DNA of 38,517 nucleotides from NCBI GenBank assembly GCA_013115125.1, contig JABANN010000331.1, positions 1 to 38,517 of the forward strand, read 5' to 3'. This document shows, piece after piece, positions 3,001 through 38,363 of this stretch. This DNA comes from Perkinsus olseni (Eukaryota). The position numbers and the translations under genes were made by a program. Position 1 is the stretch's first letter. Each line of letters begins with the position of its first letter. A model generated the notes under the pieces. It worked only from the letters and a program-made list of their open reading frames with translations, did no database searches and was not told the DNA's origin.

Positions 3001-6000
3001 CGAACGATTCGCTCAAGTGCTCTATCGTTTTTGGAGGAATCTTTGCAGTGCGCGACCCCGCCAAGTATGAATGGAAAAAAGATCCTAACACCCTCACATC
3101 GCCGAGGATACTAGCACACCAACTTGCGACCGTTTTCATCGTCAGAAAAATATCACAGTAACCAAAAAAAGACTCCCCGGTCGAGGCAGTGCACACTGAC
3201 GATGGGCTCCTACCTTAACAAGCGTATCGATTTGCCATCTTCTCGTCGGTGCAAACTTCTTGGCCATGTTGCAGATGCAAGACACTAGGTCGGGCCGGAA
3301 CTCGGTATCAGTCACAATCAGGTAATTCAAAAACTCGTTAGTCATTTGCTGAGAAGAATATCTTGCAATCTTGCACTCTCTAGCATTTTCTCAACGCACC
3401 TTCACATTGTCCTCATTGATGAGACTGTAGGCCACATCGAGCGCCCTTCTTCGGAGGCTGATATCGGTGTCCGTCAGGCAGCCCAAAATGACGGAGCGAT
3501 GCTTCTGGACCTGCATCCGGAAGGTCCCGAGTTCAATCCCCGGTGACGACATGGAAGCGGGAATTAGGGCACCAGCACTTACCGCTCCAATATCGACTGA
3601 GACAACCCCCTTGAGTGCCTCTAGAGCAACGTACCTAAAAGATACGAAAAATCGATCAAGTGATCGATTATCGGGCCACGCCAATCTGAGCTCGCTGCGT
3701 CAAAAATACGAAGAACTCTGCTTGAACAGATCTTCAACTTACTTGACATTACTGTCCTTATGCGTGAGGAATCTTCCCAGGATATTGACACCAAGTACCC
3801 GCAGAGAAGGATCCGCTACTGGACCCACGTACACTATGGTACGCACGCACTCGTATCTACAGGTCAAGCATGCAAGATACAAATTGGGTCAGTTTTAAAG
3901 CAGACGGTCGGACCGTCACGGTCCTGTTCAAATCAGCCCTCCCTCATCATTCCAGAGGCGAGAACACACTAAAAACGAAGATCTGCCTCCAAGACCTCCG
4001 AAAGTGACACTACAGTCCTTCACAAGAAGTAAGATACCAAACTTTCCCCAACTCATCCCGACGCCTCTTACAGGACAGCATTGCCAGCGTTCTTAGCACC
4101 CTCTGTATTAGTAGCCACCTGGGCCAGCACGTCACTAACATCCTCCGCCAGAGGCTGAGTCAAGTCCGTCAACATACGCATAGTCCGAAGAATCTTAACC
4201 TGACCAAAACACCACCACGAATAATAAAACTCTTTCACTAACTCGCACGAATCCAATTTGAATCACCAAGAACATTAACTCGTTCACCACCCAACTCCTG
4301 ATTCGGCGTCCTTTGCGACACAGCCCGAGCATGGCCAGAATCTTTCAAACGCTCTCAATCGTCACCGAAAACCCCCTCTCCGTTTTCACTACCACAGCAA
4401 AAGCTTGCATCACCCACCTGGAGGAAGGGATCCGTTATTCCGCCAACATCATACTCCTGCGAGTTGCCATACCCGCTGATGGTGAGGGACCTCAACAGCT
4501 TAACCAGGGTTGGTTGGACGTAGGCTAGCTCTCGACGGTAGGCCTCGGGATTTATCTGAAAGGCATTTTAGTCGCACGATAGAGCACTAAAAAAACTCCG
4601 CTCGATAAAAATGTGAAAAAAGTCTCGTCGGCTGAATTGCGCAAAAATTGGTATTAAATACCAGGATACATCCTCCAATAGTTGTTCACGCCTCGTATAA
4701 TCGATCAACCGTTTCATTCCCCCTCGAATCAGCGGTAAAAGCTTCACAATCAAAACGGAAAAGTTATCGCCGAAAGTAAGATACCTATCCCAGAGAATAG
4801 AACCCGGATCGACCGGTACATAGGCCACACTACTAACCCGCTCAACAATAATGATTCATTCCCGACACAACTGCCATGGACTTTCTTCCGCATGCACGCT
4901 CAATCTCGTCACCTTCCCGACCATTTCCCATCGAGGACAGTAAAAACTTTACCTTCAATAAGTAGTCCATCAAACTCAATGCACTCAACAACACGCCGTG
5001 ACTTCCGGACGTTCCAGCATGTGACCTGACCGAAAAAGTAAACTCAAATTCGACCATTTGGCAAAATTTGGCACAACCCTCTCATCAGGCCAATCTCACC
5101 CGTTGGCTCCGCAGGCTCCCTCCACCAGCGGTCCCACACGCGCCGAAAACTTGTCCTCCAATTCCGTGACCTGAAGAAAAAATTTCTCATTAAATCACCG
5201 ATCTTTTCAAAATAAACTTTCTTTCCCGTAAGAAAGGATAACAAAAAAAACACGCCTGATTGAAGTAAAACTGAAAAAAAAAATTAATCTCACCGCTATG
5301 TCGCGCTCTAGCTAGTGGGAAGCGTCGCAAGCAAACGAGCTCCTCAGACAGAGGGACGAGAACATCCCAGAGGACGAAGCGCCACGAACGCTGATCCGCC
5401 GGAGCCAACGTCTGCCAAGCCGCCATCCACTGTAGAAAATGAGCCTACGGAGATGGTCACTAGCCTTGATTCCCTCGGTTCCAAGGCCCTAGGTCCCTCC
5501 GCTGTTACCGACCTATCGTCCACAATGAAGAATCCCCTAGTCATAATTATGCCTCTTAAACGACCTCCAACGTAACATGACAGGTACTATCGTAGAGCGC
5601 AAAAATTGCATGGCATTCTCAGACAAGCATTAGTCCGATACCAAAAAAAAGTCGTCCACGAAATCGCAGGATACGCGTGAAGGACATCCTTCACAATAAA
5701 TACAACAGTAATAAAGCTTCGTAAAAACCCATTACCAAAATATTTCAAGTCAAATCCTCCGGCAAACCCCAGAATCTATTACTTTCTTCACGATCCTCAG
5801 CGCACACAGCGCGGCCTTCTTCTGAATATACGGACTCGAGCTGCCAGGACCAACCAGAAGCTGCTCAACCTGACGTGAGCGTACAACATTTCATACCAAA
5901 ACTTCACCAAATTATCACCTCGCGACTCAGCGACATGCACATTTCTGTTGACCCGATGTTGGCCAGGGCGCACAGGGCCAAACCCGTAACATATTGATTC

Positions 6001-7590
6001 TGAAAAGAAAAAAAATATGACACAAAAATCCGTGAAAATCCCTCTTCAACCTAAAATACGCAAAGAGTTCCTCCCCACCCGTATGAACTCATTCTCAGAC
6101 TCACGAGAACAGATTCGACCTGCCGAATCGACAGAAAAACCAAAAACGCCGTGCTCGCAATGCTCAGCTTCTCTCAACATTCCGAAATCAAAACGGAAAT
6201 AGAGCTGGGCAACCGTACTGGGGTCGAGGAAAGTACGGTACGGAGTAGGTTTCAAACTGTCAACCTAGTATGGGTACGGTGAATCAGTACGTATTAACTA
6301 TATTAAACAATGCATACGTGTATTGAATTACGCCGTACTTCAAGTACGGCGTACTAGTACGGTACTTGGGAACCGCTGCGACGGGTAGTACGGTTACGAA
6401 GCCGTACTCGTACCCGTACCGTACTCCGTACTACACCGTACCCGTACTGTCGCCCACCTCTAAACGGAAAATTTTCTCCCGAAATTCAAAATACACGAGA
6501 TAACATTTTTTCTGACGTACCCTTTTCAACCTAAGATACGCATGCTTCTCATCCCCACCCTGGTGAGCTAGCCTTCATAATGAAAATGGATTCGACACGT
6601 TCAACTCGGCGGTGGAAATAAGGGCACCGAGCTGACAAGCAACTCCGACCGGGAAATTTTTTGTCAAAATTCAAAAAAAAGACAAACTTTTTTCTGACAC
6701 CTCTAGCCATCTCACCTTCGAGTTCAAATCATTCTTTATGCTATTTGTAACGAGCATCAGCAACTCCGAGTTTTCGTCCAACAGCTGCGTCAACCCAAGA
6801 TACCTGACCCGAACTCCTGCGATTTGGCGGAAATGTGGTACTACCCTACCCCACTCTCTTCTCCGAAAACTTAGATGATGCGATGAGCTTTAGACAATCC
6901 ATCTGGCCGAAGTGCGTCGGGTAACCGAGCATGTGGATGTAGACCAACTTCGCCACATTCCGACTCCGATGGCTGAGGAAATGAGGCGATTTGGGGAAAA
7001 TGAGGTATCCAAAATTTCACACGAGAAAGCAGTTGACCCGATAACTGTAGAAAGGCAGAAAAGTCCGACACGCCCAATACTCAAAATACATAAACATGCT
7101 AAGATTGCGTGGCGCTGGAAAAGTGAGATGGAACTTTATTGCTGTAGATCGGTCGACTGAGATCGTAGGCGTTGGTGAATATTTGTATACCATCGAGTGG
7201 GGTATGATACTGAGATTTCAATCCTCAAATTGATTCAAGGTCGCACACCACTCAAGCAAAAAATTTTTTCCTTAAATTTGTGAATTTGAAATCGAGGATG
7301 TATATTGCATCGTTACACACACGGATACGCGCCAGTTGGTGATATGCATCTGACGAGACCGTGATAGCTAACACTCCTAATCGACGTAACACAATAAACG
7401 TGCAACGATTATTGAGTACCACCCCATGCAATCATCACGACGCTACATGAGCACACATCCCGTACTACTCCGGATCGCCATCCTTGAAGGACTGTCTGAT
7501 CATGGCACACTCCCTGGCCACCACCGCCTTCTCCTCCGACTGCGTCTTGCACGCTCGAACTTGACGGATCAACTCGCGAAGCTTCGTCAT
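1..7590 (-). CDS. AP1G1: AP-1 adaptor complex gamma subunit (gamma-adaptin), multi-exon, 3' end (rest of hinge and ear domain) outside the window
   Basis: Hand-spliced GT-AG exons (inner boundaries approximate): 7590-7469 [35 protein letters not shown]; 6972-6850 [29 protein letters not shown]; 6803-6716; 5999-5919; 5869-5783 [10 protein letters not shown]; 5170-5100; ~5025-4953; ~4555-4418 [13 protein letters not shown]; ~4199-4070 [19 protein letters not shown]; ~3855-3742; ~3634-3582; ~3510-3399; ~3348-3213 RWQIDT; ~2953-2834; ~2742-2686; ~2382-2257 [10 protein letters not shown]; ~2179-2129; ~1986-1902; ~1566-1528; ~1159-1028 VELQQRACE; ~782-658; ~501-369; 206-1. These motifs match the gamma-adaptin trunk in order. 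Confidence 0.95.
3903..3924. other. Exact 7-8-7 palindromic scar (putative hAT excision footprint, 8-mer GACGGTCC) in a gamma-adaptin intron
   Basis: gacggtc|ggaccgtc|acggtcc. Confidence 0.75.
6200..6462 (+). mobile_element. Non-autonomous hAT-like MITE (263 bp), copy 1, in gamma-adaptin intron 3
   Basis: Imperfect TIRs tagagctgggcaaccgtac / gtactgtcgcccacctcta (16/19). Perfect 8-bp TSD aacggaaa at 6192-6199 and 6463-6470. Many internal CGTAC/GTACG repeats. A second copy lies at 9898-10141. Confidence 0.9.
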
Positions 7591-8000
7591 GATAGTGATA
7601 ACAAAAGAAGAAAAACGAAGCTGTCTGATGCTGCTGAGCTTCAACCTTGCATCATTCAGAAAAAAAGATACTTTCCAAAAACATCATCTTTCCCATATAC
7701 ACTGCTCACCAACAAAATAAGAAATATTTTTCTTCGCTAAGCGAGAATCCATAGAACACTCCCACTTACTCTAAGACGGGCAGGGACGGGTCCCTCTGAG
7801 GCTTGCGATGAACTCCGGGAGGGTTCACGACGATTCGAAGCACTTCCCGCGCGCCACGAAATTATCATTATTATTGATAACCAGCTGAAACTCGACTTAG
7901 CATCATCAATGAGAAATGCTTCAACTTACAGTCTCGAAACAATCATACAAAATGTCAGGAATCTTTTTGCACGCACGCGCAAAATCTTCCCCGCGCGCAC

Positions 8001-9324
8001 CTACGCCAGCTTCCGCTTGTCCTGCGCTTGGAAACTGAAGTACTGCACTCCACCGAAGGTCCTCGGCCACCATCTCTGCCGCAGCATCAGGTACACGCCC
8101 CAAAGGAAATACGCTCCGCCCACCATAACCAGGAAACCACCAACGACCATATTATTTCCGCCTTGCCAGTTCGTCGTCGTAACATAGACTGACTTCTTTC
8201 CACCGAAATCCTTCGCCGGCCAATTATCGAATACATCAACAACAATAACATCGCCCTCGGTAAAGTCGCTGTCGATTCTTCCGTATAATTTCAAGAACGT
8301 CGATGTAGCCGCAGTAGTAATCCAATTTCGAAACACCGTAGATTCCATACCCCATCCACTAGGATTCGGTACTTCATGATACCCCTCCAGTTCGTCCGAC
8401 CCACAAGTTTGCGTAAAATTACAATGCAGCGTGTCACCATAAGAGCAATCAGGCACGTAGATAACATCCCTCGCCCCACTACCATATCTGATTTCCCTTC
8501 CCTTCGGTCTTACTGTAGTAAACTCGACGTCCGCTGTCTTCGGCACGCACAGCGTCGGCGGCTGCAGCCAAAGCAACCAGAAATCGTTAACCCCGTACGG
8601 CTTCCCTTCAGAGTCCTTCCAAAGAAAAGCATCATCGCTCATGTCCCTCGGATTAACCGTTTCAACCGTCGCGTCATTAGTAAGCTCAGTTCCCATATAA
8701 ATTCTAGGGATCTCATTACTCCCATTCGCTCGCTCCACTGTAAACCAGTAGGTATCATTAAACGTACTCTTCGCCACCAACCCACACGGCAACGCTCCCA
8801 CATTTTTATCATCTCCCATATGGTCAAACAACCCACACTTTGCATAACGACTAGGATGGACGTTAGACGCTCCCGAGGTTAACTGATCCGTCGAAATCGA
8901 TTTCATGTACTCAGCTTCGTTCTGATACACCCAGTCCATCCGATAGTAAATATAAACCGGTCCCGAGATATTCTTAGTAACGGGAAATCTCAGCTGACCA
9001 TCAGCGTTGTATTTTTTATTAATCGCCCAAACCTTGCCACTCGCAATAACAATCAAAATTCCATACGACAACAGTATCGCTGCAATAACCCAGACCAATA
9101 AAACTGCAGTGAAAGGGGTCATAACCTGACAACAGCGGAGCGAAGCGTTGCATGTTTACCATTTTAGCATCACTGCCTACCGGCATAGAAACCTTGTAAT
9201 CCTGTTGTAATAGGGCGTCCCAAGCTCCAATGATTTTATCCTTGAAACTCACACGTCTCCTGCCTTCTCCCTCATCCAACTCGTCCCCCTTCACAGTGAT
9301 TCTATGGTCCCTGAACAGCGACAA
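8001..9324 (-). CDS. CDC50/LEM3-family P4-ATPase (lipid flippase) beta subunit; 5' end unresolved
   Basis: Motifs GPVYIYYRMDWVYQN, PCGLVAKSTFNDTY, FRNWITTAATSTFLKLYGRI, FGGKKSVYVTTTNWQGGNN, and two hydrophobic TM segments. Intron 9180-9126 joins LLQQDYKVSMP|VMTP, which resembles the family's QQxLxAWQPxLT motif. The true start codon was not identified. Confidence 0.9.
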
Positions 9325-9897: not shown

Positions 9898-10141
9898 TAG
9901 AGGTGGGCGACAGTACGGGTTCGGTCTAGTACGGGAAACGGTACGGGTACGGCTCCGAACCCGTACTATCCGTCGCAGCGGTTCCCAAGTGCCGTACTAG
10001 TACGCCGTATTTGAAGTACGGCGTAACTCAATACACGTATGCGTTGTTTAATATATTTAATACGTACCCGTATTAGGTTGGCAGTTGGGAACGTACTCCG
10101 TACCGCATTTTCCTCGACCCCAGTACGGTTGCCCAGCTCTA
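9898..10141 (-). mobile_element. hAT-like MITE, copy 2 (244 bp), inverted relative to copy 1
   Basis: Starts tagaggtgggcgacagtac and ends gtacggttgcccagctcta. Reverse-complement similar to 6200-6462. Flanks are ctacgtta (9890-9897) and ctaggtta (10142-10149), a 7/8 TSD. Confidence 0.9.
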
Positions 10142-10549: not shown

Positions 10550-10625
10550 AAATACGAAAAATAATATGAAAAATACGAAAAATAATATGAAAAATACGAA
10601 AAATAATATGAAAAATACGAAAAAA
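10550..10625. repeat. 21-bp AT-rich minisatellite, about 3.5 copies
   Basis: Unit aatacgaaaaataatatgaaa repeated in tandem. Confidence 0.9.
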
Positions 10626-11457
10626 AGAGAAACATTTCGCATATGACATCGCCATCGACATCGCCGAGCTTGACGTAGTACTGGTGGAACCCCACGATTT
10701 ATTCATCATCAACAACGCATAAACGAAACAAATATTCCACAAAATCGCGTAACAATAATCCCTCCCCCAGCCCCACAATTACCCTTCATCCAGTGATATA
10801 TTATGATCTGGATGGTGGGGCAAATCTGTCATGGTCGCCCCTCCCGAAACTTGATGCCTTCTACCAAAGATTGAACGGAGATTCACCATTGTTATTACAA
10901 ATAATATTTTACAACTAAGAGAAAGTAGAAAGCACTTTCGATGTCTCTCGCGGTTCAGATCACAACTTCGTCAACATCCTCGTTACTGTATATTAAATAC
11001 AGGTATTGAGGGGAACGAAAGATCTTTCTTCCTACTGCGAAACATCTTCAATTCTTACAAAGTTCAAACCGGGTGAGATACAAAATTCCGTGAGCAAAGT
11101 TTCTCCGATTGTTGAATTATGGAATAACCTTCGGTCGCAAAATTGAAATGGTAAGTTTTAGACATAACCACAGGGAATGATTTTCGATATTTCCCAACGA
11201 TACAATTCCAAGTAATAGTAATTTTCATAGAACTCACTTTATGCCACATGCAAAAGATGAGGCCACTATGCTACGTGGTGGCGAGGCGACAACAGCGGGC
11301 TTACAATAATAGTAGCCACTGCATGTGTCTATCGCTGAGCAATACAGGTACTACTAATCTCGAAGAGATTAGCATGCTGCGTTAAGATTGGCTAGTGGAC
11401 ACAGTGTCGACGGCGTGCTAGGGGAAAATGACAAGATAGTATTTTTGTGCGGAAAAA

Positions 11458-14500: not shown

Positions 14501-17500
14501 TGTGGCATACAGAAATTAGGCCATTCAACAGCCCCACGGACTTCCGACCATGGACGACTCACTTGGCTGATTCATCGGGAATGTCCTTCATTCTCTTCCA
14601 CGCAACCCAGCGCCAAACGTTTTCAAGGTTCTGCTGGCACAACAGGATGAACTGAGAACTCTCGCTCGTGATGGAGTTCACACATGCCCTGACAAAACCA
14701 AAGGAATACAAAAGGGAGACCCGGCGCACGGTGTAGCCAACCCTGCATTAATTAGTTAAAAAACCACACGTTCTCCCAGTGGAGAAGACTGAAAGCGCGA
14801 GGCTTCCCCTACCTACCGTGCAAGCACTTTCAATAGAAGATCCTGTTGTGTGATAGGGCGGGGCTGATGATCTCCCAGGATTTGATGGCTCACCTGCGGC
14901 GGACGAACATCACTCACACACGTTGATCGCATAGAAATTCGCAATGAAAATCTGTAATATGTAAAAAGACCGCTGAGCTAGAGCCTAACCGTTTGCCTAT
15001 CACTCAACAACGCCATGGTTGCTCTAACTCAGACTCTATCCAGTAATTTCATGCGTCATTGTCGGCCCTGATAGACGATCTGTGCTTTTCCAGGGGGCAC
15101 CTAAAATTCCGGTGAAGTACATGTAGGTCAATCAAACTCTACTAGTTACTTCATGCCTAGTCTCTAGTTTTCCGAGTGCGCACCTACGAAACCTTAGCCC
15201 AGCTTGTCGCGAGTCAATGAAGTTATTAGATAAAATCTCAGCATCCCACCAACCATTCGCCGCTCAAGTTTCTTGTCATATTCGGACGTACGATGCAAAG
15301 AAAGAGGACTCCCACAGCCCCCTACCTGCGTCGTAGTGATAAGACTCAGCTTCTGTCTCTGAGTTCCTCCCAGTCCCCTCAGGCGGAATGCCGATTGTGC
15401 GTAGTCCCTAAAGACACAGTACACAGCAGCAACGACCAGACGGCTGAAAACCCTTTGAGTTATTTCGTTGCAGTAGGGGTTGATGTAGAACCCTAGTAGA
15501 CTTGGCTCGTAGTGAGGCGACAGTAAGAGTAGTTGAGAGAACGGTTAGATAATGCGAGGCTAGTATGGGCACAGCCCGATTGTGTGGCCTACCTGAAAGT
15601 CGTATCCTTGCCCAAGGTAATCATTCCAATGCAACCCGCTGGCTGAGGGATGTCCATTCCCGTAGTATGGATGTGGTCGTAGAAGGTGAACCGCCGACTG
15701 GGTGCCAGTCCCGAGTGTGCTAGGGGGATGACTAACCCGTTGTTGGACCGCTCCAGTATCTAAGCTTAATCGCTGCCATACGTCAGAAAGCCGCCACGGC
15801 CACCAGTAAAACGTGAAATGAGTATCTTAGGTTGAAGCGTGCCATGAATGAAACAGGTCGCCACAGCATACCGCATTGAAGGCATTCAAAGTCGTTCATC
15901 GCTCATTTCCATGATATGCTCTATCACAGCAGTAGCAATATTGCCTCTCATGGCTGAGGAAACCTCATCACGTTGTAACAGCACACAAGAGCAAACAAAG
16001 ACTCGCTCCCCCCTCTCATCAATCATCATCAACTCCTCAGTTCCGGATGACTAGGCCAGACGCGGCTCAGCGTTCCAGCCAACTTATGATGGAAAGAAAA
16101 CAACTCCCAGGTTACCAGTCGCTCATCGGAGCTGTCGTCCAAGAAGACAACAGCATCAAAGGCATCCTCGGGCAGCAGGCGAAGGAGCTCTCGAGCAACT
16201 TGCAGGTTACTCACACCCGTGATCAGCGCACCACAATCTATCAAAGCGTAGACACCGTCAAGGGACGAGGCCTGAGACAAAAAATAACACTCCCGGCCAC
16301 AGTCGTCTACCCCATCAGACAGGGTTGGAATATCGCACGAACGAAGACAGAGCCTCATCCATCTGAGGCATTATCTATGATGTTGCCAAGCTCAGAGCTT
16401 GGCGGTACGGTTGCCGAGCTCAGTACGGTTTTTTCTGGCATAAGTGACGCGGCGCGATTGAGGTGTATTCTTTAAGCTTCTTTGCATGAAAAGCCATCCT
16501 ACTTGACGAGCTAGTGAACAACCTCCTGGTTGCGTGTAAAGATACACATCCCCGCACCGCACAGAATAAAATCGATTAAGACGTTCCACAACGCGAAGGG
16601 TTCCTTACTCGCTCGAGAAGGTCGTGGACGGTCCACTCAGCGGGAAGAGTAGCCAAACGACCATCACCAACAACAACATCAGTGTCCGTCAGAGTAGCAG
16701 CAATATGGCCATCACAACCACGATCGTACCTAGCAGGAGCCTTCTCCGCCCGATAGCAACAGTCCCGGCTTACTGGCAGGCCCCCATTTCGGTCGGAAGA
16801 AGGTCGTTCGGAGTTCCCGAGAAGCCCAGGCGATGATGGAACAGGAGAGGGGACCCGAGCTCTTGGCCGCTGGCGACCAACACGCCTGAGAGACGCCACT
16901 TTATGAGAACGCCTTCGCCAACTACGCTTACCAGGAGTGTGGGAGAGGGCAGCAGGGAAGGCCACGTTAAAGAGATAGTAGATCGTGGCGGAGGGCGACG
17001 CTCGACGCATAAGGTGCCACAGGATGTCTGAAAGGGTCATAAACGATAATGTCTTCACGAGTAGCCGCTTCTTGCAACGACAGGCCCAATAAAGACACAG
17101 AATGCTGTATGATAGAGAATTTCCTGTAGAGTTAAAACTATAATCATTCTATTATTCTCAGATAAGTGACAAAAACGCGCTTTCTCGTAGCTTGAATGCT
17201 TGATATTGATCGACATGGACTACTAGTATACCGTAGTACGATAACCGTACATTACTGAATACAGCTGTGAACGAGGGTTACGTGCAACGTGAAGAAGGGA
17301 GTTCGAGACCATTTTCGGCGTCAGGCCGTCGCGACACCAGAGTCGTGAAAGCCGTCGAAAGCTCAAGCGCAAAATTTTTATACGGCGCTCGGAAGAGCTT
17401 GTGACCGACCCCAATGACGAACGAATACGAATGACCCGAAACGAGCTATCTATCACTAATTGCTGTATACCAAACCATTGAGGCTCTCACTGGATAGAGA

Positions 17501-23500: not shown

Positions 23501-26500
23501 GTTGTAGCCCGCGCACTGTTCCAGATTTTTCATACCAAAACCGCCAACCATAACCTTCCCCTTATCAACCCGCCACTGCAATCGGGCGTCGCTGCTGCGG
23601 TACCCCTTGGCCGAGGGACTCGGCAATTTCTCGCCGTTCGAGTTCAGCACAATTTTAGACAAGAACACCACATCCCGCAGCCAAGCCAGCTCGGGACAAT
23701 GGTCCAAGACATCCGACCTCTCGCCGGTGAGCAGCTCAGGAACGTACTCCCGACACGACGCGCCAATCCCCAGCTTCAAGCCTAGCTGCTCGATCAGCTG
23801 TGTCTCAGCCGGGCCAACCTTCACGCCAGACACGTCAAATTTGAACAGAGTCTGTCGCTCTTTCTGACCTTCAACCACAACCGATTGGAGCCCTTGGAAG
23901 TACTCCAACGCCGCAGCACGGGCACTGCACAGCTCCGGCCACAACAGCAGCGAGAAGGAGCTCTCCTCGCCAAACACTCCCGGGTCCAACACAAATGGGA
24001 GTACAGGCCCATCAGCCTTTCCACTGTAATGCTTCGCAAACAGGGATGGTGTGTCAGTAGAGACAATTCGACACAGTCGATCGGTGAGCACGACCAGCAT
24101 AGTCGCGGTCACCAGGCGTACCGCGTCAGACGCTCTATCAGAGCGACAGTCAATACTGAATGCAGCGGCAGCAAAGTGTCTCGTAAGCAGGTGGGTATAG
24201 TGTAGCAGGAAGCTTCGGTTAGCCTCAACTCTGAGCTCGGGGAGGCGCCAAAACTCCTCGTCGGTCGGCAATGGCACCACTCGGCACATCGCGCTCGCGA
24301 TCAGTGAAAAGGATGTCTGCTGTGCTTGCGGAATCTCCTCAGACTGATTTTGCAGCAGGGCAATTGACGTGACAGCGTTGTACAGGAAATCACGGAGCTG
24401 GGCAACCGACCGGATGCGTTCGCTCTGCAGCGAGCACAAGTCCACCGGAATGACGATAGCTGGCGGCCTGGCTGGGCCCGCTAGACCGTCCTCATCTTCT
24501 ATCCTGGACAAGCGGTCGAACCAAGGGAATTCTGTATTCACCTCAGAGTACCTACGAACAACGAAATCTCTCCGGACGTTGCGGAATTTCACAAAAAAAA
24601 TATTCTACATAGAATTTTGCGTCCAGAATTCCAGAAAGCCGTCAGTTTTTCCACTGCCTCGAGGTGAGGTGAATATTGCTTGCTAGCAAGCTATTATCCT
24701 GAATTCTCGGCTTCAACTCGGTCGCGTTGACACCACTGAGAATTTTACTGGGGGGGGAGGGGTATATATACTGGGTATTTATTAACCCACAGGAGACTCC
24801 CAGACAACCCCGAGAATGTCCGTATTTTTCCACCCCTCTCCACTGAACGTCCTGCTACCCCTATCTAAATGCTAATGCCAACCCTTCTCTTACTGAATAG
24901 AGCCGTCCGGAAGGCTGGGAGGTCTCCACTGCTGCTGACTCTCATCGGGGCATGCCAGCGTGGCCTCGATCGCCGCCTCTATCTTGGAAGTTTCATGCGC
25001 TATGAAGGGCGATGACCTCGAATTAGGGAACCTGCCAGCCACTACTTCTACCGACCAAGCGGAGTCACATCAATCGAAAAGAATATTCAACACTGGCCGC
25101 CTCCTGCAGTCAAGATCCCTAGGAGTGCCCAGAAGGTAGATTTCTCAGAGAGAGAATGAGAACAGCTTCCACGATGCTCGTCCAGTTTATGGGTCGAGAC
25201 CCTCAGAGACGTGTAGAATTATTCAGTAAGCACACGAATAGTGCTCGGATTGCCGGAAGCTCGCCGAGTGCGACTACTACGGACTCGTCAAGGTGTCATT
25301 ATAGGGGTTTCTTTCGATGAAAGTGACAACCAACTTGAGTTAGTGACAACAGCAATACCTCAGGTTAGTGACATGCACAGAGATCTCCCAGTGAGTCCAC
25401 CTATGAATAATCCTATCGCTATCATTAGGCTGAAGTAACCATATTACAATTCAATCTATGGGTACAATATAATTACCAGTATAATTTACTGATCCTCTCT
25501 ATATTAAGACATATACTTTTGTCCAGGACGGTCCATCCATACCCAACTTACACTTTCTTATGCTCAGCAGCATACCAGGCCAACCCCCGGCACAGCAGCC
25601 GTCGAGTACGTTGCGTCATACCCATCAAAGTTTTCCCCGGTAGAAGACTTAGCACGCACTCCCGCGTGGACACAAACGCCGTCCAGGCGGCAGTGGACTC
25701 GTCGAAGCCCTCAGGCGAAGGCAACCATCGAAGAATCTAAAAACACACAAGTGTCTCTGCGGGATAGCGAGCACGTGAGCAAACCAAGCGCGCGGCTTAC
25801 CAGGCCCCTGAAACCCCGAGCCCATCGGAGCAGACCTCTCTAGAATGGTTAGCCGCTCAGAAGCGACTCGAGTCCTCTACGCGTTGACGCCGAAAAACGA
25901 AATCTCAAAGGACCACAAATTAGAGAATATCCATCCCAGAAGGACGCTGTTTTACGACTGCCCGAGGCGTTCTTTCTGCCGAGAGGTCCGAGAGAATTGC
26001 AAAACACACGGTTTGAGGGCGCAATCATGCTCATTATACTCGACTACCAGCCATTAGAATGATTCCCTTTAAGTATTTACAACATCCCCATTCTCCTGTA
26101 GGATTCCCACAACGGCAGTGCCACTCAATACTCAGCGACCGAGCAGCCCCACACCCTCCCCGAGAATCAAGCTCACCGTGTAGAGCGCCGCTGTGCAGGT
26201 GATAGCACAGGAATTGTCCCCACCGATCGCTGGATGCAGCCACGACGCGAACTCCACCATCCCTGGGTATTTCTGACACGATGATTCTGCCTTTCCGCTG
26301 CAGGTCCGAGTCGCTTACATTCATCTGTCCCTCGATGGGCGTGTCGTTCAAAAAGGGCAATAAAGTTCCGAAAACAAACTTCGCTCCGCCTGATTTTTTC
26401 TCTGGCACTAAAAGTTGCTTGAACAGCTCGATCCAGAACGTCGTCACTTCAACCCTTTCTCTCGGGACATCGTTAAAAATGAGAGGATTCAGTCGCTGCT

Positions 26501-29254: not shown

Positions 29255-30434
29255 AGGAATACTACAGAACTGATCAGCAACCGATCATCCGGCAGGCCCG
29301 GTGGGCGAATGGAAGCTCTAGTTCCAACCAGCGATCATGGACAGCAACGAGCTCACCTCATCATTCCTTGACAAGAGACCCTCAGCGATATTTTCCCACA
29401 AATAATATTGACTTGTAGGCATCACTGTAACCCACTGGGGCCAGCCCAGTGCACTGAGTCAGACGCTAAGATCTGTCAGATCGTCATAATCTATGGCGGT
29501 CTGATAGTTCTTAGCATTCACGAGTCATTTCGTTTACGACTCATAAAGGAAATGACTCGTAAATGGAGAACAGACAGTCGATTCACTGTGGCCTGTGAAG
29601 CATATATTCACCGTGGCCCCTTAGGGGTGGTTGATTCAGGGACCACTAAGCTTAAGTAACCACCCCAGAGGGAATCAGTTCGACCCATGTTCGAATCCCC
29701 ACAGAAAATACAGTCTACTTCAACTTAATCAGCCATTGTTAGTCTCCGAGTTGCCGAGCTACAAGCGATGTTGCTCAATCGCTGATCTGGCTTTTTGGTA
29801 CGATGGACGAGCAGCCGACTGATAGCCCGGTGCCGAAAACCTACCGTGGTTCGATCCGCGGAGGCATCACTTCGGGCTACGGCCCGTAGCCTAGCCTACG
29901 GGCCACTTCGCCGGAGTTCAGGCAGGTTCAGAGCTCTCTAACGCGTTCGCCCAAGAGGTGGATATTTTAGTCGGACTGAATTAGCCCCTCCCACTTATCG
30001 ACTGTTTCACACACTTAAAAGTCACTGGCCGGACAAGTGGGACAGTGGGGCAGGTCTTGTCCCAGAGTGCCCGAAACCTATCCCTAAAGTGAAAGGCCAC
30101 TTCAGGCTCAGTGCGCAATTAAGTGGCCACTCACTTGAAAAGCCCTCAAGTTGTGGAGCTCTTTGATAAACGGCGACCTAAGGGAGGTCTCGTGAAACCC
30201 AGTATCCTTCAAAGGCTTTGAATTAAAGCGGCCCGTAAGCCGTTACTTGGCCTTTGTGGCTGCCATCAGGGAACTCTTCAGATTGACAGCGCTGAGCATA
30301 AGAAACGGATGGCCCGGAAGTTTCAGACTGGCTGAAACCATCCATCAGCCATGACGCAACGCCGGGGCACTCAGTGGGCAGTAATAATAGTATCAAACAA
30401 TTACATCCGATATTGTGGGTCTGTTTGTTAGCGT

Positions 30435-30456
30435 ACACAGAGTCTGTGTCACAGAC
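30435..30456. other. Exact 7-8-7 scar (8-mer ACACAGAC)
   Basis: acacaga|gtctgtgt|cacagac. Confidence 0.75.
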
Positions 30457-30626
30457 AGAAGAGGAGGAGCTAGGATACAGTATCCTAGCTCTTCAGTATC
30501 CTGCAAGTATCCTGGATATTTTCAACACCTTTTGCTGTGTTGAACATGGCGGAGAACCCTTCCTCCCAGGGACAGGGTGGGTAGCTGTCTCCCACTATCT
30601 TTGTGTACAGAGAGCTACTCGTTCGG

Positions 30627-30887
30627 TGGGGGGGGGGGGGGGGGCCCGCCCCCCCCCCCCCGCCCCCCCCACGGGGGGGGGGGGGTGGGGGCGGTGGTAA
30701 GAGGTATTATAAAATGTTGAGGAGAAGGATGGATGGGCGCGCCACCGGGAGAGNNNNNNNNNNTGTTTTCTCCCGGGCCCCCCCCCCCCCCCCCGGGGGG
30801 GGGGGGGCCCCCCCCCCCCCCCCCTTTTTTTCCCCCCCCCCCCCCCGGGGGGGGGGGGGGCCCCCCCCCCCCCACCCCCCCCCCCCC
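30627..30887. other. Poly-G/poly-C low-complexity sequence flanking a 10-N scaffold gap (30754-30763); probable low-quality sequence
   Basis: Long G and C homopolymer runs on both sides of the N run. Confidence 0.8.
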
Positions 30888-32209
30888 AACCGAGCCCAGA
30901 ATCTGGAGTATGGTTACCAGATGCTATCTGGCTTTATCCGGCAGATAGAGCCATCGTCTACCGTAAACCACCAGCCCCTACCTTAGTGGAGGCCTTGCTA
31001 TCGTACAAAGATTTCTGGTAGCACGTCGTGCTCGTTAGCTACAGTACCCGAGTAGCATTCCCAACTTCCCCGTCGAATATTGAGTCCAGCAGTTTTGAGT
31101 TCACGCGATTGCGTAGCAAGACAGCAGCAGCTGGCGACGGAAGAGTTTTCGAAAAGCTTGTTTGAGCTTCACAAAGATATGACTTGGATGCATTCGACTT
31201 ACGAAAATATGTTACGGGTTCAACCCAGCCATTGTCATTTCAGCTGCAGTGCGACTATTACGTAAAGATGGAGTATAGATGTATTATCCATGATCTCACT
31301 ATGGAGCCGTGATGAAATATCTACTGTATCACGCTGAAGAAAACTACAAACTTGCTGATGGGCATGATCTCTTGAAGATAGACGAACGGCAGCGATGCAC
31401 CAACGACCGCAGGACGTACGTCTGCGTGCAAGTCGACACGGACAGGAACTAGGACGCATCCATTGGAAGGCAACATCTTATGTTGTGGCACACCAGTTGT
31501 GCTGAACAGATACATATCGACCTGTATATGGTACCCAGTCGAACGAGTCGACCCACAGCTTGCTGTCCACAGATCGAAATTGCGTCAAGAGCTGTCGATA
31601 GTCACTCTACGCGACTCGCACGTTTACTATTCTCCCTCGTGTCACGCGCGGTGTCGGGTGACGTGACGACGTATGGTCATAGTGTTGTGGTTTCCAGCCA
31701 TACTGAAAGCAAGGGGCAACTTTCTCTAGTAGCTTACAGACGTGCCGGACAACCGATAGGGGAAGGGCGCAATCACTATTCCAAGTCCCTGGACTCAAGG
31801 GCGGGCGCTCCGGGAGCGAAGGGCTCTCTACTAGCATAATCCCTAACACGTAAACAGCTCGCGGGAGACGAGAGTCAATCAGAGTTACCGGCTCTCCCCC
31901 CGGCCGTCACAGCGAGACGCATACCGGCAAAGGGGTGACACCATGCCCAGAATGTTCCTAGCCGATCCGACTGGGCTATCGACCATCGTTGGTCGTCCGT
32001 GATCCAGGAACGGCATGATCAAGCCGGACATGCAGAATACAACGTATCCAACACGTCACCGTGACTGTGTCCCTCTTGTCTCCTCGTGCTTCGTCCCTCG
32101 TTGTCTCCTCGACATCTGCTGAGATGCCCCTCTGAGTGTGACCCTTATCATCATTCGTATTTCCCAAGTTGTAGTTGCCGACCTCCGAGGTTCTATTCTG
32201 AGTTGATCC

Positions 32210-32626
32210 ATGGTCTTCCCAAGAAAAGTCATCTGCGGCATCTTTCTCATGGTTCCGGTATTCAGTGGTTCTACTCCTCCATCCGGGCCCTATCATAAGG
32301 TGATCCGCGACGTCCCTGCTGTCTGCGCGCAAGCCTCCTTCAGCGATGGCCCGCTTGATAGCGTTGTATTGAGTGTGACGTGTGGTTCGGGCAAGGGCCA
32401 GAGCAGAAGTCTGACTGTCAATGAAGTGGAACCCTGGGTTTTCAAGCTCGATAATACTAGCCAGCACGACCACATCCTCTTCATCGATTTTCAGAATCTC
32501 TTCTGTCAGGGAAAGGTTGCCCTGCTGGATGATGATCTGTCTGAGTTCCAGTACGATGGCTGCACTCAGACGATGAAGACTGCCTTTGAAGGGGTCGAAT
32601 ACAATCTACAACCTGGAACCTGCTAG
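32210..32626 (+). CDS. Small secreted 4-Cys protein, paralog A (138 aa, intronless)
   Basis: Hydrophobic N-terminus, PPSGPY motif, Cys at positions shared with 33297-33736 and 36066-36482, C-terminus GVEYNLQPGTC. Confidence 0.8.
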   Translation: MVFPRKVICGIFLMVPVFSGSTPPSGPYHKVIRDVPAVCAQASFSDGPLDSVVLSVTCGSGKGQSRSLTVNEVEPWVFKLDNTSQHDHILFIDFQNLFCQGKVALLDDDLSEFQYDGCTQTMKTAFEGVEYNLQPGTC

Positions 32627-33058
32627 TGGAGCATGGTGTCCAGTCCCCGATACAATTCCCTGATACATCAGGGGAAGTCTCACGGGGAACCCTCAACCTA
32701 TTTGACACTAGTAAGCCGCTACTCAGCAGCGACTCCTTCGACCATATCAGCTCCCACATTATGCCATCATTGTTAGCGCCTAAGCTCCTTTCACAAGATA
32801 CTTTTTCTGGCAAGAAGCTCCTGCCTGGTCTCTCTTTGCGTGCGTGCACATTCTCAAATTGAGAATCTCAATCGAGGTGTTTAATCTGTTGTTGTGCGAC
32901 CTGCAGCAGCATCGTACCGCCTCTCGAGGTCTCCGTGCTGGGGCGGCTCAGCCATACTCGAGGTCAGCCGTAATAGATTTGCTAAGTATACCCCTACTCC
33001 GGCACGGTGCAAGGCACTCGCGAGTCAGTTTTTAGTTCTTTTTCGACTCGAGCACATA

Positions 33059-33080
33059 CTATGAGGCTCATAGTATGAGC
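33059..33080. other. Exact 7-8-7 scar (8-mer CTATGAGC)
   Basis: ctatgag|gctcatag|tatgagc. Confidence 0.75.
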
Positions 33081-33296
33081 CTTATGGGGTAAGCGAAGTC
33101 ATATGGCTATGTTTATGGCGTATCATTAGATATTATCACCCTTATCGACTCAACCCAAGTATTTGTTTAATTACACTCATTCACAGGGGAGCATGATTTT
33201 TGTTGTGACGATTTGGCCCGGGATAGTTAGTCTGAGAAGCTCGACATTATACTTGGGGTGATCTCGTCTAGGATCCATTATTTCTGATTTCAACTA

Positions 33297-33736
33297 ATGA
33301 TCTGCCTGAAGACCATCTGCAGTATCTCTCTCATGACTCCCGGAGTCAGACTCCGATATTCGGTCGTCCCTATCCTCCTGCCGGGTCCTACCACAAAGTG
33401 ATCGCTCAGCAGCCCATTGTTATCTGTGCGCAAATTAATTGGACCAATGACCCGGATATGGGCATCGAAGTTGCTGCTTTGTGCGGTTTAGGGATGTCCA
33501 CATCCGACGACCTGTATCTTGATGAACTGCCGCTTCTCGCTTACAAAGTTGATCCGGTCAGTGAGTACAAGCACACTGATTTCATTCGTACTATTAACTC
33601 CTTCTGCAATGGTACGGTGGCCTTGCTGAGTGACGACATGTTCAAGTTTGAGTACCACATCTCTGAGCAGACGATTGAGACCAAGTTCAGGCCTCAAGGA
33701 GTAGAGTACAATTTAACATTCGGCCTCTGCTTTTGA
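33297..33736 (+). pseudogene. Small secreted 4-Cys protein, paralog B, frameshifted by a 14-bp insertion in the signal-peptide region
   Basis: ATG at 33297 gives MICLKTICSISLMT, which aligns with paralog A. Deleting 33341-33354 restores the frame to ...PIFGRPYPPAGSYHKVIAQQ...QGVEYNLTFGLCF. The insertion forms the scar tgactcc|cggagtca|gactccg at 33334-33355. Confidence 0.85.
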
Positions 33737-34373
33737 CGCCTGGGACTCGGGCCCTCATCTGATGGGAGACCACTCGCGCCGCCCCGCATGAGCAATTTTC
33801 AATCCCTCAGGCTCTCTGATTTTCATAGTGGATAATCGTACAACATGTAAGACATTCACCAGTTAATGACCGGGCTGAGGACCGAGAGTGGTATCCTTAG
33901 TGTAGTCTCGCGAGGTTGCGCTGGATTATCTTATACTTGGTTTAGAGCACACTCGTGGGTATACATGAGTATTTCATTGGAGTGTTGGGAGGTCGTATGA
34001 TACGACTCGTGTCCCTTCTTTATATTTTCTCGCCTTTCTTCAGTTGGTGACACAGCCGAGTATAGTTGATTCACTAAACGCATTTCATACCACCTCAGCA
34101 ATACGTCCGGTTCGAGTTGTCGAGTCGTACAGTTCGAGTTCCACTAATATAGTGGCACTCTGTCATAGTGAATCTAATCCCTATCACTGCTGACAAACGA
34201 GGATCCTTGTAACTGGTGCGAGCTGCGCCCAACCATTTCTCGGCAACCAACACTGAGGAACGAGTGCTTCAGTTTTATGATAAAACTTCTATCAGATAAG
34301 ACTGAACGAGTCAATAAGGTGGGTTGACAAGGTCACCACTGCCAGCCCCCCTAGCTGGGGCTCGGCGTCAACA

Positions 34374-34395
34374 GCGCTCTTAGAGCGCCGCTCTA
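34374..34395. other. Exact 7-8-7 scar (8-mer GCGCTCTA)
   Basis: gcgctct|tagagcgc|cgctcta. Confidence 0.75.
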
Positions 34396-34668
34396 CATGC
34401 GTCCTTGTGATTCTTAACAACGACAGCTATGGAATCTTTCTATAGCTGTATGTTCAGCCAGGAATGAGACCTTTCAGATATCTCATCGGGCACTGCGCAT
34501 CTTGCGCACTCGCCGTGTGTGTTTACCAGCCCAGCGGCCCCAGCCCATTGCCGCTATTTGCTGGCTCCCCGAGATTCGAGTACGGCCGAGATGTTCAATC
34601 GTGAAGGTCGACCTGTCTGCTTTTGGCATCAGCCGAACCTTCCATGATGGCCCTTTGAGTCAAAGGGC

Positions 34669-34690
34669 CTCTCTCGGAGAGAGTCTCTCC
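34669..34690. other. Exact 7-8-7 scar (8-mer CTCTCTCC)
   Basis: ctctctc|ggagagag|tctctcc. Confidence 0.65.
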
Positions 34691-35263
34691 ACATCTCGGG
34701 ATCCGTTTCGGACCTGAGCGACTCAGGCTGAGTCTGACCTAGGTTCCCCAAGGCGACCACGCGCCACTGAATTCAAGCCGCCAAGGCTGGTTTGGTCGGG
34801 GGCCCCGACTCGGAGCGATGGTGCTGTACCAGCACCTGTAAATGGATGAAGCGAGTTGTTCTTTTTACGTAACGCGCCACTTGTCCGAAGAGGCAACACT
34901 GGCAGAACGAGGATTCAACCTGAACAGCGATAGTATTCTCGTTCGGTATTATTATAATACAGTCAATCGACCAACCGTTTCATCCAAGATCGTGATAGCA
35001 GGCGATCAGGAGACCTTTCTCGGGATGTTGGGCACACCACCGATCACAGCCGCGCCGTACCTGTACGATGATGGTCATACGCTAGCCAGTAGTACTAGCC
35101 CAGTACGCGTGCAGGCTGCAGTTGTGTGATTCGCGCCTAGCGTTTCACGTGCAATGTGTGTAAAATGACGCGTAGTGTAGTGCGTGATGCGTGTTACGCT
35201 AGCGTAACACGCTTGCGTCACGCAACAGGGGTGCATCTCCAGTGCGTCCGACAATGTCGGGCC

Positions 35264-35285
35264 GACATCGTCGATGTCACATCGA
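35264..35285. other. Exact 7-8-7 scar (8-mer GACATCGA)
   Basis: gacatcg|tcgatgtc|acatcga. Confidence 0.75.
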
Positions 35286-36065
35286 CTCAGGGTCTGGCCC
35301 GGGCGACCGGACGCCCCGCCGGTGACCATCATTTGTACTATTGTGACGACTATTCACCCTGCTTCATTCGTTGCAGGCTAACTACCTTTATGTACCGGAT
35401 ACTATCTGGTATGATCCTGCGCCCTGCACTCGCGTGTACGACTATGCGCGCTAGGTTGCGTCACTGATCACGCTGCTCCCAGTCTTAAAGCCGCGGCCTA
35501 CCTCTCATCGATATCAAGGCGAAGTAGGTCGTCAAACAGTGTAGCAGATCAGGTTCGTGACTACTGCATTATGTAGAGTGAAAGCCATCACCGCGGCTTA
35601 CTAACTACCTGTAGCTCGTATCATTACGCGGCTCGCACTCACGTGCATGAGAACGTGTTATAGATTACGCTGTAGATCGCCTTCTCGCTCTTAATCCATT
35701 CGAGTTCAGATTTCGGGTTTCTTCGAGCCCCGTCTCAAATATAGACACTGTACTGCATTATTGTGCTCTGCTGTTCTTCCTATAGCATACTACATCTGGT
35801 ACTGTAAACCACTGCAAGAGTTGCCTTCACGTTATCTGTTCTACTCACTCAATGCGTACGTGCTTTCGTGCGTGGCCCCGATGACGCAATAGATCTCGCT
35901 GTAGATTAATTATCCAGGATGACCCTTCACGTCATAGCTCCGCTGGGGTTGGATGCCCCCTCAACCCGAAGCGCAGAGCCACTCAGCCTGAGTTTGATCA
36001 TGACCTTCACCCAAATCTATCTATGCCCTCATCAGCCTTGTTGCGAATACTGCTCCGTTCAAATA

Positions 36066-36482
36066 ATGTTCATCAAGAACACAGTCAGCTACATCGCCGC
36101 CGCTCTGTTGACGGCGCTGGCTCGCCCCGGCCCTCCGACTGGGATCTATTATGCTAACATCAATCCGCAGGGTACAGTCTGTGTTGAAGTCACTTGGGTC
36201 CCTGACCCTGACAAGGATGTGAGGCTTGAAGTGAGGTGTGGTGCACGCTCGAAGGTGAGCAGGGATCTGACGGTTGATGAAGGGCCGCCGTTCGTCTATA
36301 AGATTGACACTCATAGCGAACCTGTCCACAGTTCCTTCCGCCAAGCGGCGAATGCCGTTTGTCTTGAGTTGGCGACCATGCAGGCGCATGATCTCTACAA
36401 GTTCGTTTACAACAGGGATAGCAATACCATAGTAACTGCGTTTCAAGCGCAGGGAGTCGAGCTGAGACCTGGGCACTGCTGA
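36066..36482 (+). CDS. Small secreted 4-Cys protein, paralog C (138 aa, intronless)
   Basis: ATG at 36066 gives MFIKNTVSYIAAALLTALARPGPPTGIYY...QGVELRPGHC. Same length and Cys spacing as paralog A. The longer ORF start at 35919 has no counterpart in the paralogs. Confidence 0.8.
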   Translation: MFIKNTVSYIAAALLTALARPGPPTGIYYANINPQGTVCVEVTWVPDPDKDVRLEVRCGARSKVSRDLTVDEGPPFVYKIDTHSEPVHSSFRQAANAVCLELATMQAHDLYKFVYNRDSNTIVTAFQAQGVELRPGHC

Positions 36483-36613
36483 TGTTGGGCCTATGTACCG
36501 TGGAGAGTCAGCTCACCTTGCTTTCTCTGGATGATGGAGTTATTGGCTTTTGGAGATAGTTATTCTAGTCGGTCTTTCACAGTTCGGTATCTCTTGTATG
36601 AGCCCATACATGC

Positions 36614-36653
36614 TTCTCGGGCCGAGAATCTCGGCTCAGCGAGCCGGGCTCGC
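36614..36653. other. Two overlapping 7-8-7 scars (TTCTCGGC exact; CGGCTCGC with 1 mismatch)
   Basis: ttctcgg|gccgagaa|tctcggc at 36614-36635 and cggctca|gcgagccg|ggctcgc at 36632-36653. Confidence 0.75.
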
Positions 36654-37055
36654 TCAAGATCTCTATGCTTGCAGGGCTGCCGTGCAAGAATCTGCGTCGT
36701 ATCAGTGTCATATCACATTCAACAATATTGAGGAAGTCTTTTGCTCCCACCCAGCACCTTGCGGTTGCGTTACATGTCCCGGGCCATCGCCGATCCTCTC
36801 AACTTCAGAGTCCTAAGAGCCGGCACATCCATCACCCGTCCCGTTCTCCACAGCCGATTCGGCTGAGCCAAATGCCACTTTGAAGTTTTTATTGCGCGAG
36901 TCACTCCGCCGTGACTCTCCGCGTCAGTTTATGCGCACCCTGGTTCCCAGCGAGAAATTTTATCTGCATTTTACTTCAGAAGTTTTTCAGACTCAGCTGC
37001 TTTCAGCATGTATCAACCTCTGGCAAAACTCAATGATTGATGAACTACTCCAACG

Positions 37056-37616
37056 CAGGATGTACACATCCAGGAAATTTCCGAGCCGTCGGAAATTTCA
37101 GCCAGTCCTCAGAGGGAATTTCCTGAAATTTCCGTTTCCGTTGAAATGGGGGAAAATGTCCGAATTTCCTCCTTGATTTTCTTGAAACTTCTCCGGCAAT
37201 GTCGATGTGACATTGTCACATCGCCCTTGATTCATCAGTGCGTCAGTCGCCTAATAATACTGATAGACTATTAGAAATAGTCTATCAGTAATAATCTATT
37301 AGCGATACTCTATTAGTTGGGATCAAATCGATCATCTGGGCGCGTGCTCAGCACATCCTTCACTTCTATGTTTGAGGGGATTTCAATTTGACAGGTCGAA
37401 GCTTCCACGTTTAAAGGTTTGGAACGTCGACGCATTAGCATATCAGGCCGGACACGTCACAACGCTACATTGCAAATCTGGCGAAATAAGGCTGGAACAG
37501 CGAGCATTCGCGAATTTCAGATTTTTTCGAAATTTTCGCCTTCGCCGGAAATTTCCGAAATACACTTCGGAAATTTCAATGAAATTTCCGCCGTGGAAAT
37601 CCATGTGCACACCCTG
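37056..37616. mobile_element. Putative non-autonomous hAT-like element (561 bp) with CAGG TIRs and GAAATTTC subterminal repeats
   Basis: Left end caggatgtacacat versus reverse complement of the right end cagggtgtgcacat (12/14). GAAATTTC(C)-type palindromes cluster near both ends (about 37072-37170 and 37512-37590). No intact direct TSD, but see findings. Confidence 0.6.
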
Positions 37617-37838
37617 TTGGAGTCCAACATTGGAGTCCAATGGCGAGTGATTCCAAAGCCAACGCTAAACCAACCATCGACACGATGCGCTCCCTTCCCG
37701 ACCGACACAAAATTTATGTTAGTCACTGAGCACTCTATATCCGCATTCGCATTCGATTCGAATAACTCGAGAAACAGAAGAGCTTTCTCGAGGAAGTCTA
37801 ACTTGAGTACGACGAAGTGGCAACTACCAGGATTCGCA

Positions 37839-37860
37839 CTCTCCGTCGGAGAGTCTCCGA
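37839..37860. other. Exact 7-8-7 scar (8-mer CTCTCCGA)
   Basis: ctctccg|tcggagag|tctccga. Confidence 0.75.
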
Positions 37861-38231
37861 GATATTCTACAGTGTGGGAGCTACACCCTGCACATGGTAG
37901 ACTGAAACCCTGGGTTTCAGATATACATGCGAGTATGCTTCAATAAGGATCTTAATACATGCAACAATAAGGATAACAAACAATGGTAGCAATGGTCATA
38001 TACTCGCATCGTCGTACCCAACAGGTGTGCCTGGCGCTGTCAGCCACTGACGAGTCTCTGTGGTGGAGACGGAACACGTCTTAAGAGTGACATAATCTGA
38101 TTTGAGGTAACAGACCTTTTGCCCAATATCAGACTATGTCACTTGTCACAAGAAAGCAATTCCAGTATAGGTCTGTTACCAGGATAACAACGATGCACTA
38201 TGAAGGTATGAGATGGGCTGTCCGTCACATT

Positions 38232-38363
38232 CCCGGAGCCTCCGGGCCGGAGGTCCCAGTACTCAAGGCTCGTCATTTTGCTTGTGAAATTCACAATGTG
38301 AATTGTTTAGTGAATCTGAAACATTGCCGGACGTGCCCCAGCTCCGGTGACCGGAGTCCGGTC
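38232..38363. other. Cluster of three exact 7-8-7 scars
   Basis: cccggag|cctccggg|ccggagg (38232-38253); ttgtgaa|attcacaa|tgtgaat (38282-38303); ctccggt|gaccggag|tccggtc (38342-38363). Confidence 0.8.

Follow-up and report, generated by a model that had tools for sequence, protein, structure and literature searches.

Fixed 22-nt double palindromes in a Perkinsus olseni contig: probable excision scars of hAT-like transposable elements

A stretch of 38,517 nt from Perkinsus olseni (contig JABANN010000331.1, positions 1 to 38,517; in its full length referred to as the window) carries 24 copies of a 22-nt double palindrome, in which an 8-mer X is present as X[1..7]+revcomp(X)+X[2..8] and the 8-mer site has thus grown by 14 nt. 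Thirteen copies of this 7-8-7 structure, called scar in the following, are exact and 11 show a single change; 22 of the 24 lie within 8.5 kb (29.9-38.4 kb) and the remaining two at 3903 and 17229. We regard them as excision scars of hAT-like elements, formed when the hairpins on both flanks were unfolded and annealed through the 8-bp target-site duplication, and would give this reading a probability of about 80%. All scars are listed here, with no strand assigned and with the supporting check or observation in brackets; X7 and X8 are two divergent isolates and the open reading frames (ORFs) B and C two paralogous genes, described below.

3903-3924: exact scar of 8-mer GACGGTCC (exact-copy check, k-scan)
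17229-17250: scar of 8-mer TACCGTAC with one G>A change in the middle 8-mer (consensus scan)
30208-30229: scar with one transition (mismatch count)
30435-30456: exact scar of ACACAGAC (exact-copy check, k-scan)
31481-31502: scar with one change, a transversion (consensus scan)
32851-32872: exact scar of TTCTCAAT (X7/X8 alignment resumes exactly at the third segment, 32866)
33059-33080: exact scar of CTATGAGC (exactly 14 nt missing in X7 and X8)
33334-33355: exact scar of TGACTCCG within ORF B (frameshift; probably absent in X8)
33992-34013: scar with one transition (mismatch count)
34272-34293: scar with one transition (consensus scan)
34374-34395: exact scar of GCGCTCTA (exact-copy check, k-scan)
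34669-34690: exact scar of CTCTCTCC (adjoins a 21-nt odd palindrome, 34649-34669)
34713-34734: scar with one transition (consensus scan)
34795-34816: scar with one transition (mismatch count)
35085-35106: scar with one transition in the middle 8-mer (consensus scan)
35247-35268: scar with one transition, overlapping scar 35264 (targets offset by 3 bp)
35264-35285: exact scar of GACATCGA, formed partly inside scar 35247 (exact-copy check)
36614-36635: exact scar of TTCTCGGC (also in X7)
36632-36653: scar with one transition, overlapping scar 36614 (targets offset by 4 bp)
36851-36872: scar with one transition (mismatch count)
37839-37860: exact scar of CTCTCCGA (14 gap letters in the X7 record over 37636-37910)
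38232-38253: exact scar of CCCGGAGG (X7/X8 records 28 nt shorter over 37996-38312)
38282-38303: exact scar of TTGTGAAT (the same X7/X8 records, 28 nt for two scars)
38342-38363: exact scar of CTCCGGTC within a multi-copy repeat (X7 and X8 without exactly 14 nt)

Twelve exact copies had been reported in an initial annotation of this DNA and all of them were confirmed with no mismatches, as were its five one-mismatch copies with one mismatch each. A further copy at 29966, described there as having two mismatches, does show two changes against a three-way consensus but three mismatches against its own middle 8-mer. The exact copy at 32851, detected in a k-scan of the window, and the single-change copies at 17229, 31481, 34272, 34713, 35085 and 35247 are additional. 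When the window was scanned for X[1..k-1]+revcomp(X)+X[2..k] with k=4-12, k=8 led to 13 exact copies compared to none in each of five dinucleotide shuffles, while no exact copies were found at k=6, 7 and 9-12, and k=4 and 5 were at shuffle level. Twenty mononucleotide shuffles gave no copies with zero or one change and 0.05 copies per shuffle with two changes. In a geometry scan of k=6-10 with offsets of 0, 1 or 2, enrichment was observed solely at k=8 and offset 1 (12 exact copies and 20 with at most one mismatch, shuffles 0; the low-complexity filter used here removes scar 34669, hence 12 instead of 13), with lengths of 6, 7, 9 and 10 and offsets of 0 and 2 at chance. Both scans thus bear out the sharp peak at k=8 that had been expected. 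Similarly, odd palindromes with 7-nt arms occur 35 times in the window compared to 2.3 times per shuffle, and even palindromes are at chance level.

Footprints with 7+7 flanks and a shorter inverted middle (2-7 nt) were at chance level in the window, leaving the full 8-nt inverted form as the sole enriched product among recognisable footprints with intact 7+7 flanks. The inserted 14 nt are set entirely by the local 8-mer and no sequence is common between sites. The change is a transition in 10 of the 11 single-change copies and a transversion in one (31481), as expected for scars that were born exact and later decayed by ordinary point mutation. Two pairs of scars overlap, 35247/35264 with a 3-bp and 36614/36632 with a 4-bp shift between the target 8-mers, indicating that some sites were hit twice; about 0.5 such pairs would be expected by chance from a rough estimate, so that two are only mildly unusual. 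Longer perfect palindromes with arms of 9-12 nt were also detected (30467-30491, 34649-34669, 35189-35212, 37203-37223 and 37902-37920), all odd except the even 35189-35212, and could be one-sided footprints with long P tracts.

Positions 30900-38517 were matched in eight public runs of one organism, four of which were compared (X5, X6, X7 and X8). Samples and study of X5 and X6 differ from the possible source sample, and X7 and X8 are divergent isolates that share only 16% of the sampled words. The indel results are those among the indels listed, with 42 further indels beyond them; X7/X8 cover is little or none in parts (e.g. 31154-31661), and the X7/X8 scoring leaves out scars 34374, 34669 and 35264. 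X5 and X6 contigs carry all 11 exact scars of the compared stretch with no gaps and 0-2 differing letters. As these contigs were assembled independently from other samples, the scars are not assembly artefacts, a possibility that the initial annotation had named as refuting its reading. Alleles short by exactly 14 nt, expected there for other isolates, were indeed found in X7 and X8 at scars 33059 and 38342. Record lengths imply a 14-nt absence also at scars 33334, 37839, 38232 and 38282: of the 15 gap letters in X8 record 26 a single one is accounted for by the listed 1-nt gap, so that scar 33334 is probably absent in X8; X7 record 23 shows 14 gap letters over 37636-37910, a range that includes scar 37839; and the X7/X8 records over 37996-38312, with scars 38232 and 38282, are 28 nt shorter than the window. 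Scars 36614 and 36632 are shared by X7, in which record 22 spans both and has as its sole gap a 2-nt insertion elsewhere.

The presence or absence of 14 nt between isolates goes both ways. Two 8-mers that are intact in the window are altered in X7 and X8:

35676-35683, no strand: intact 8-mer ATCGCCTT in the window, +38-nt form in X7/X8
36408-36415, no strand: intact 8-mer in the window, within ORF C; a 14-nt insertion in X7/X8 gives a 7-8-7 scar

The X7/X8 insertion behind 36407 forms, read by hand, a 7-8-7 scar of the local 8-mer (at most one mismatch to the 8-mer of the window). At 35676-35683 a hand reading of X7 and X8 gave the first segment, the inverted 8-mer, 16 nt, again the inverted 8-mer and the third segment, which is what two separate hairpin-derived halves joined without collapsing on each other would look like. 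The geometry of the scars, the gain or loss of 14 nt and this 'unannealed' variant are observations. Empty alleles, in which the 8-mer stands only once, are thereby available in X7/X8 for 33059 and 38342, and in the window for 36407 and 35676. Empty and +14 scarred alleles, two of the three states sought by the initial annotation, were therefore seen, and the third one, occupied by an element, was not (four runs, listed indels).

Other copies of the repeat around scar 38342 in X6-X8 run the upstream sequence straight into the third segment. Summed contig depth in all four runs was several-fold above neighbouring bins at 35720-35980, 36996-37757 and 38266-38517, with many loose ends, and these three ranges are multi-copy repeats. 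In one X8 contig, 37736 is followed by 911 other letters and then leads back to 35981, reflecting a rearrangement or another copy in that isolate.

A route from an inserted element to the scar can be proposed as follows. The element would lie between two copies of an 8-mer N1..N8, and its excision would turn each flank into a hairpin with strands of 7 and 8 nt. If both hairpins were opened well away from the tip, or if resection unfolded them, 3' tails carrying N8'..N1' (left) and N1..N8 (right) would result. These tails could anneal over the full 8 nt, and after trimming of flaps and sealing of nicks the invariable product would be N1..N7+revcomp(N1..N8)+N2..N8, the original 8-mer plus 14 nt. 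As the unfolded tails would be complementary over exactly the 8-nt duplication, 7+8+7 is expected wherever a hairpin was opened beyond 8 nt. In the 2004 Hermes work of Zhou et al. the first nick is reportedly made one base into the flank, so that the two strands of the flank hairpin would be 7 and 8 nt long. The hairpin intermediate, the repair by annealing and trimming, and the transposase family are what we infer.

Several features expected for hAT excision are visible in the window. The two centres of the 22-mer are exactly the complements of the bases adjoining the element and the unit has the length of a hAT duplication. An 8-bp target-site duplication is reflected by the enrichment of k=8 alone and by copies of a miniature inverted-repeat transposable element (MITE) with 8-bp duplications, and the hAT-type 1-nt offset by the enrichment of offset 1 alone and the excess of odd, not even, palindromes. 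Mobile elements with hAT-type termini are present as the MITE (TAGAG...CTCTA) and a 561-bp element (CAGGG/CAGGA); TAGAG and CAGGG fit YARNG, the hAT end motif. The elements with terminal inverted repeats (TIRs) are:

6200-6462, + strand: 263-bp MITE, termini TAGAG...CTCTA, with a perfect 8-bp target-site duplication AACGGAAA (6192-6199 and 6463-6470)
9898-10141, - strand: second, inverted MITE copy, 88% mean column identity (alignment including flanks), 8-bp duplication matching in 7 of 8 positions
37056-37616, no strand: 561-bp TIR element, termini CAGGATGTACACAT / CAGGGTGTGCACAT, multi-copy, inside the scar cluster

This MITE family with its 8-bp duplications and the 561-bp element place TIR elements in the same window as the scars. 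The hAT interpretation of the initial annotation is supported in part, by the k=8 peak, the 14-nt alleles, the TIR elements and the 1-nt offset; an occupied allele was not found in the compared contigs, nor a transposase in the ORFs scanned. The termini of the 561-bp element begin with CAGGG/CAGGA, and six of the seven window copies of the motif GAAATTTC lie no more than about 80 nt from one of its two ends. The element is polymorphic, being absent in X7/X8 (joint 37048>37636). A 16-nt palindrome is formed by the sequences on its two sides, and two 15-nt odd palindromes 13 nt apart (37615-37642) adjoin its right end. The right flank may reflect a one-sided hairpin repair plus a 6-8-7 scar; a speculative hand reading gives CTCCAAC(G/A) as an 8-bp duplication, six palindromic letters at the right end and an adjoining 6-8-7 scar. 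The two inverted MITE copies bracket a CDC50-like gene (8004-9155), which such a pair could move or invert as a composite unit. The 24-nt MITE terminus gave no matches in a metagenome scan.

Several points weigh against excision of hAT-like elements as the origin of the scars. No allele with a TIR element at a scarred 8-mer was found among the listed indels of four of the eight runs over 7.6 kb, and all population evidence consists of assembled contigs of four runs, not raw reads. No transposase domain was detected in the 65 scanned ORFs of the 98 in the window with at least 90 amino acids. The flanks of the 561-bp element are palindromic without a clean 8-bp duplication, and one insertion plus up to two standard scars on the empty X7/X8 allele did not reproduce them (best edit distance 7). 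The target preference of the 8-mers is weak, with T at position 2 in 11 of 21, and gives no clear published hAT target motif. Footprints with deleted flank bases are invisible to the scans, so that a 'single product' is perhaps overstated. Finally, 22 of 24 scars in 8.5 kb require an extra assumption such as local hopping, a regional insertion preference or relaxed selection.

Other origins were weighed on the same data. An assembly or library artefact would be in line with the 10-N gap and its flanking G/C homopolymer runs, which show that the assembly is poor in parts, but as independent contigs from two other samples of another study reproduce 11 of 11 exact scars and some sites in divergent isolates are exactly 14 nt longer or shorter than in the window, its probability is negligible. 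Template switching or snap-back synthesis at ordinary breaks, e.g. by polymerase-theta end joining with inverted copying of the flank, can from general knowledge yield short inverted templated insertions; it predicts no fixed 8-nt unit with a 1-nt offset, yet this was seen at 24 of 24 sites with other geometries at chance, which makes it highly improbable. We give little more credit to a mechanism without transposons, in which a domesticated transposase-like nuclease makes 8-bp staggered hairpin breaks in a variable region and repair adds 14 nt. This would account for the cluster scars far outnumbering the resident elements (22 vs one TIR element), for their clustering round a small secreted-like gene family with two of three members hit, and for no occupied allele being seen; but scars normally outnumber copies in cut-and-paste elements, the same window holds mobile TIR elements including the MITE with 8-bp duplications, a TIR element is polymorphic inside the cluster, and scars were also found at 3903 and 17229, distant from the gene family.

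Two known footprint types were tried and rejected. Transib/RAG- or MULE-type footprints have the hairpin at the exact border (even palindromes) and 5-bp or 9-10-bp duplications; no exact copies were found with offset 0 at k=6-10, nor with any offset at k=9 and 10, and k=5, the Transib/RAG size, was at shuffle level when scanned at offset 1 only. P-element footprints combine an 8-bp duplication with remnants of the terminal repeats left behind, and the 14 nt inserted here follow the local 8-mer, with nothing common between sites. More serious, though still unlikely, is an origin from another 8-bp-duplicating and hairpin-forming superfamily (an 8-bp Mutator-like or an undescribed alveolate DDE family) instead of hAT proper. 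No transposase was identified among the 65 of 98 window ORFs scanned, which leaves room for it; the length is strictly 8, with no exact copies at k=9, and the termini TAGAG and CAGGG fit the hAT end motif. According to the accessible text of PMC5499845, Muta1 duplicates 8 or 9 bp and forms hairpins on the flanks, but more than 90% of its excisions in yeast are precise. Likewise, the part of PMC3706591 available to us describes unusual DDE families such as Dada in Perkinsus, but with duplications of 6-7 bp, and the 1-nt offset is a documented Ac/Ds signature in the accessible sections of PMC5873905.

The scar cluster surrounds three genes of a small family:

32207-32623, + strand: ORF A, small Cys-containing protein, paralogue of ORFs B and C
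33272-33733, + strand: ORF B, paralogue of ORFs A and C, interrupted by scar 33334
35910-36479, + strand: ORF C, paralogue of ORFs A and B, hit by a scar in X7/X8

All three have signal-like N-termini and no Pfam family was matched. Scar 33334 shifts the frame of ORF B between the ATG with the signal-like N-terminus and the conserved domain, and the 14-nt X7/X8 scar behind 36407 falls within ORF C. From residue 53 on, ORF C is present in a protein atlas, where its fold is predicted with confidence (pTM 0.79). Structurally it comes closest to unnamed Perkinsozoa clusters, followed below the bar by lipocalin-like proteins. Outside the cluster, a P. olseni protein matched 60% of the CDC50-like ORF (8004-9155) at 99% identity and one of P. 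chesapeaki showed 80%, which points to Perkinsus, an alveolate that parasitises molluscs, and rejects the fungal origin suggested by Pfam hits; the protein atlas gave no taxonomy for this ORF. An open frame of 2296 amino acids (17717-24604, - strand) matched DUF3638, DUF3645 and a ResIII helicase-like domain. A short AT-rich tandem array is located at 10550-10633, its unit spacing alternating between 12 and 9 nt. G and C homopolymer runs at 30618-30894 flank the 10-N gap (30754-30763) and look like scaffold-edge junk, not biology.

Excision is the invisible half of cut-and-paste transposition, and a fixed, sequence-independent scar makes past events countable and roughly datable, in this case for a protist lineage in which both mobile elements and break repair have barely been described. 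The uniform product is informative, in a testable way, on how the parasite repairs hairpin-ended breaks. Isolates differ in the scars they carry, and members of a small secreted-like gene family are interrupted by them, so that the scars generate genuine variation and can serve as strain markers. Their 14-nt palindromic indels will confuse read mappers and variant callers unless recognised. More tentatively, and at clearly less than even odds, Perkinsus might repair excision hairpins almost only by unfolding both of them and annealing through the 8-bp duplication, which could be due to tip-proximal hairpin opening and classical end joining being weak or absent in the lineage. If so, an identical +14-nt double palindrome would result from every excision, past excisions missed by repeat finders could be counted and dated from the genome, and secreted-protein genes would suffer recurrent frameshifts from the scars, which could in principle be removed precisely by slippage between their 6-nt direct repeats.

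In searches of the full-text literature, with few subscription papers covered, neither a fixed 7-8-7 footprint nor transposon footprints in Perkinsus were found described. The ingredients, namely hairpins, P nucleotides and microhomology, are already known; novelty seems to lie in the one deterministic product with the full duplication, in its density of 22 per 8.5 kb and in its occurrence in Perkinsozoa. As proposed for the scars, hairpin-capped flanks are opened off-centre in V(D)J coding joints (RAG) and Transib, leading to palindromic additions. RAG and Transib form hairpins at the exact border (offset 0) with a 5-bp stagger, whereas offset-0 structures are absent in the geometry scan of the window. 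For Ascot-1, a Ds-like hAT element of Ascobolus immersus, Colot et al. (1998) reportedly described, to judge from the title, non-random footprints with parallels to V(D)J joining and of 'extensive diversity', whereas the scars of the window are uniform.

The target-site duplication itself also serves as the source of microhomology in mPing excision, where it supplies a uniform repair (PMC4561436, accessible part); there the site is restored precisely, whereas in the route proposed here the duplication would lie on unfolded hairpins and its annealing would add 14 nt. Closest are the Ac/Ds footprints in plants, budding yeast and Candida albicans as described in the accessible sections of PMC5873905. 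Both copies of the duplication are kept minus the base adjoining the element, palindromic P-nucleotide insertions are centred on the complement of the base adjoining the transposon with palindrome arms of up to 20 nt in yeast, and 85-100% of the joints in Arabidopsis and yeast show microhomology. The scars share the duplications minus one base and the P-nucleotide centres and, by the proposed route, the microhomology joints. According to the same sections, Ac/Ds footprints are heterogeneous, with 28 types among 128 events in C. albicans and mostly 0-3 P-nucleotides, and were obtained as reporter revertants, whereas the scars of the window are natural fixed or polymorphic genomic sites with a single full 8-nt product among footprints with intact 7+7 flanks.

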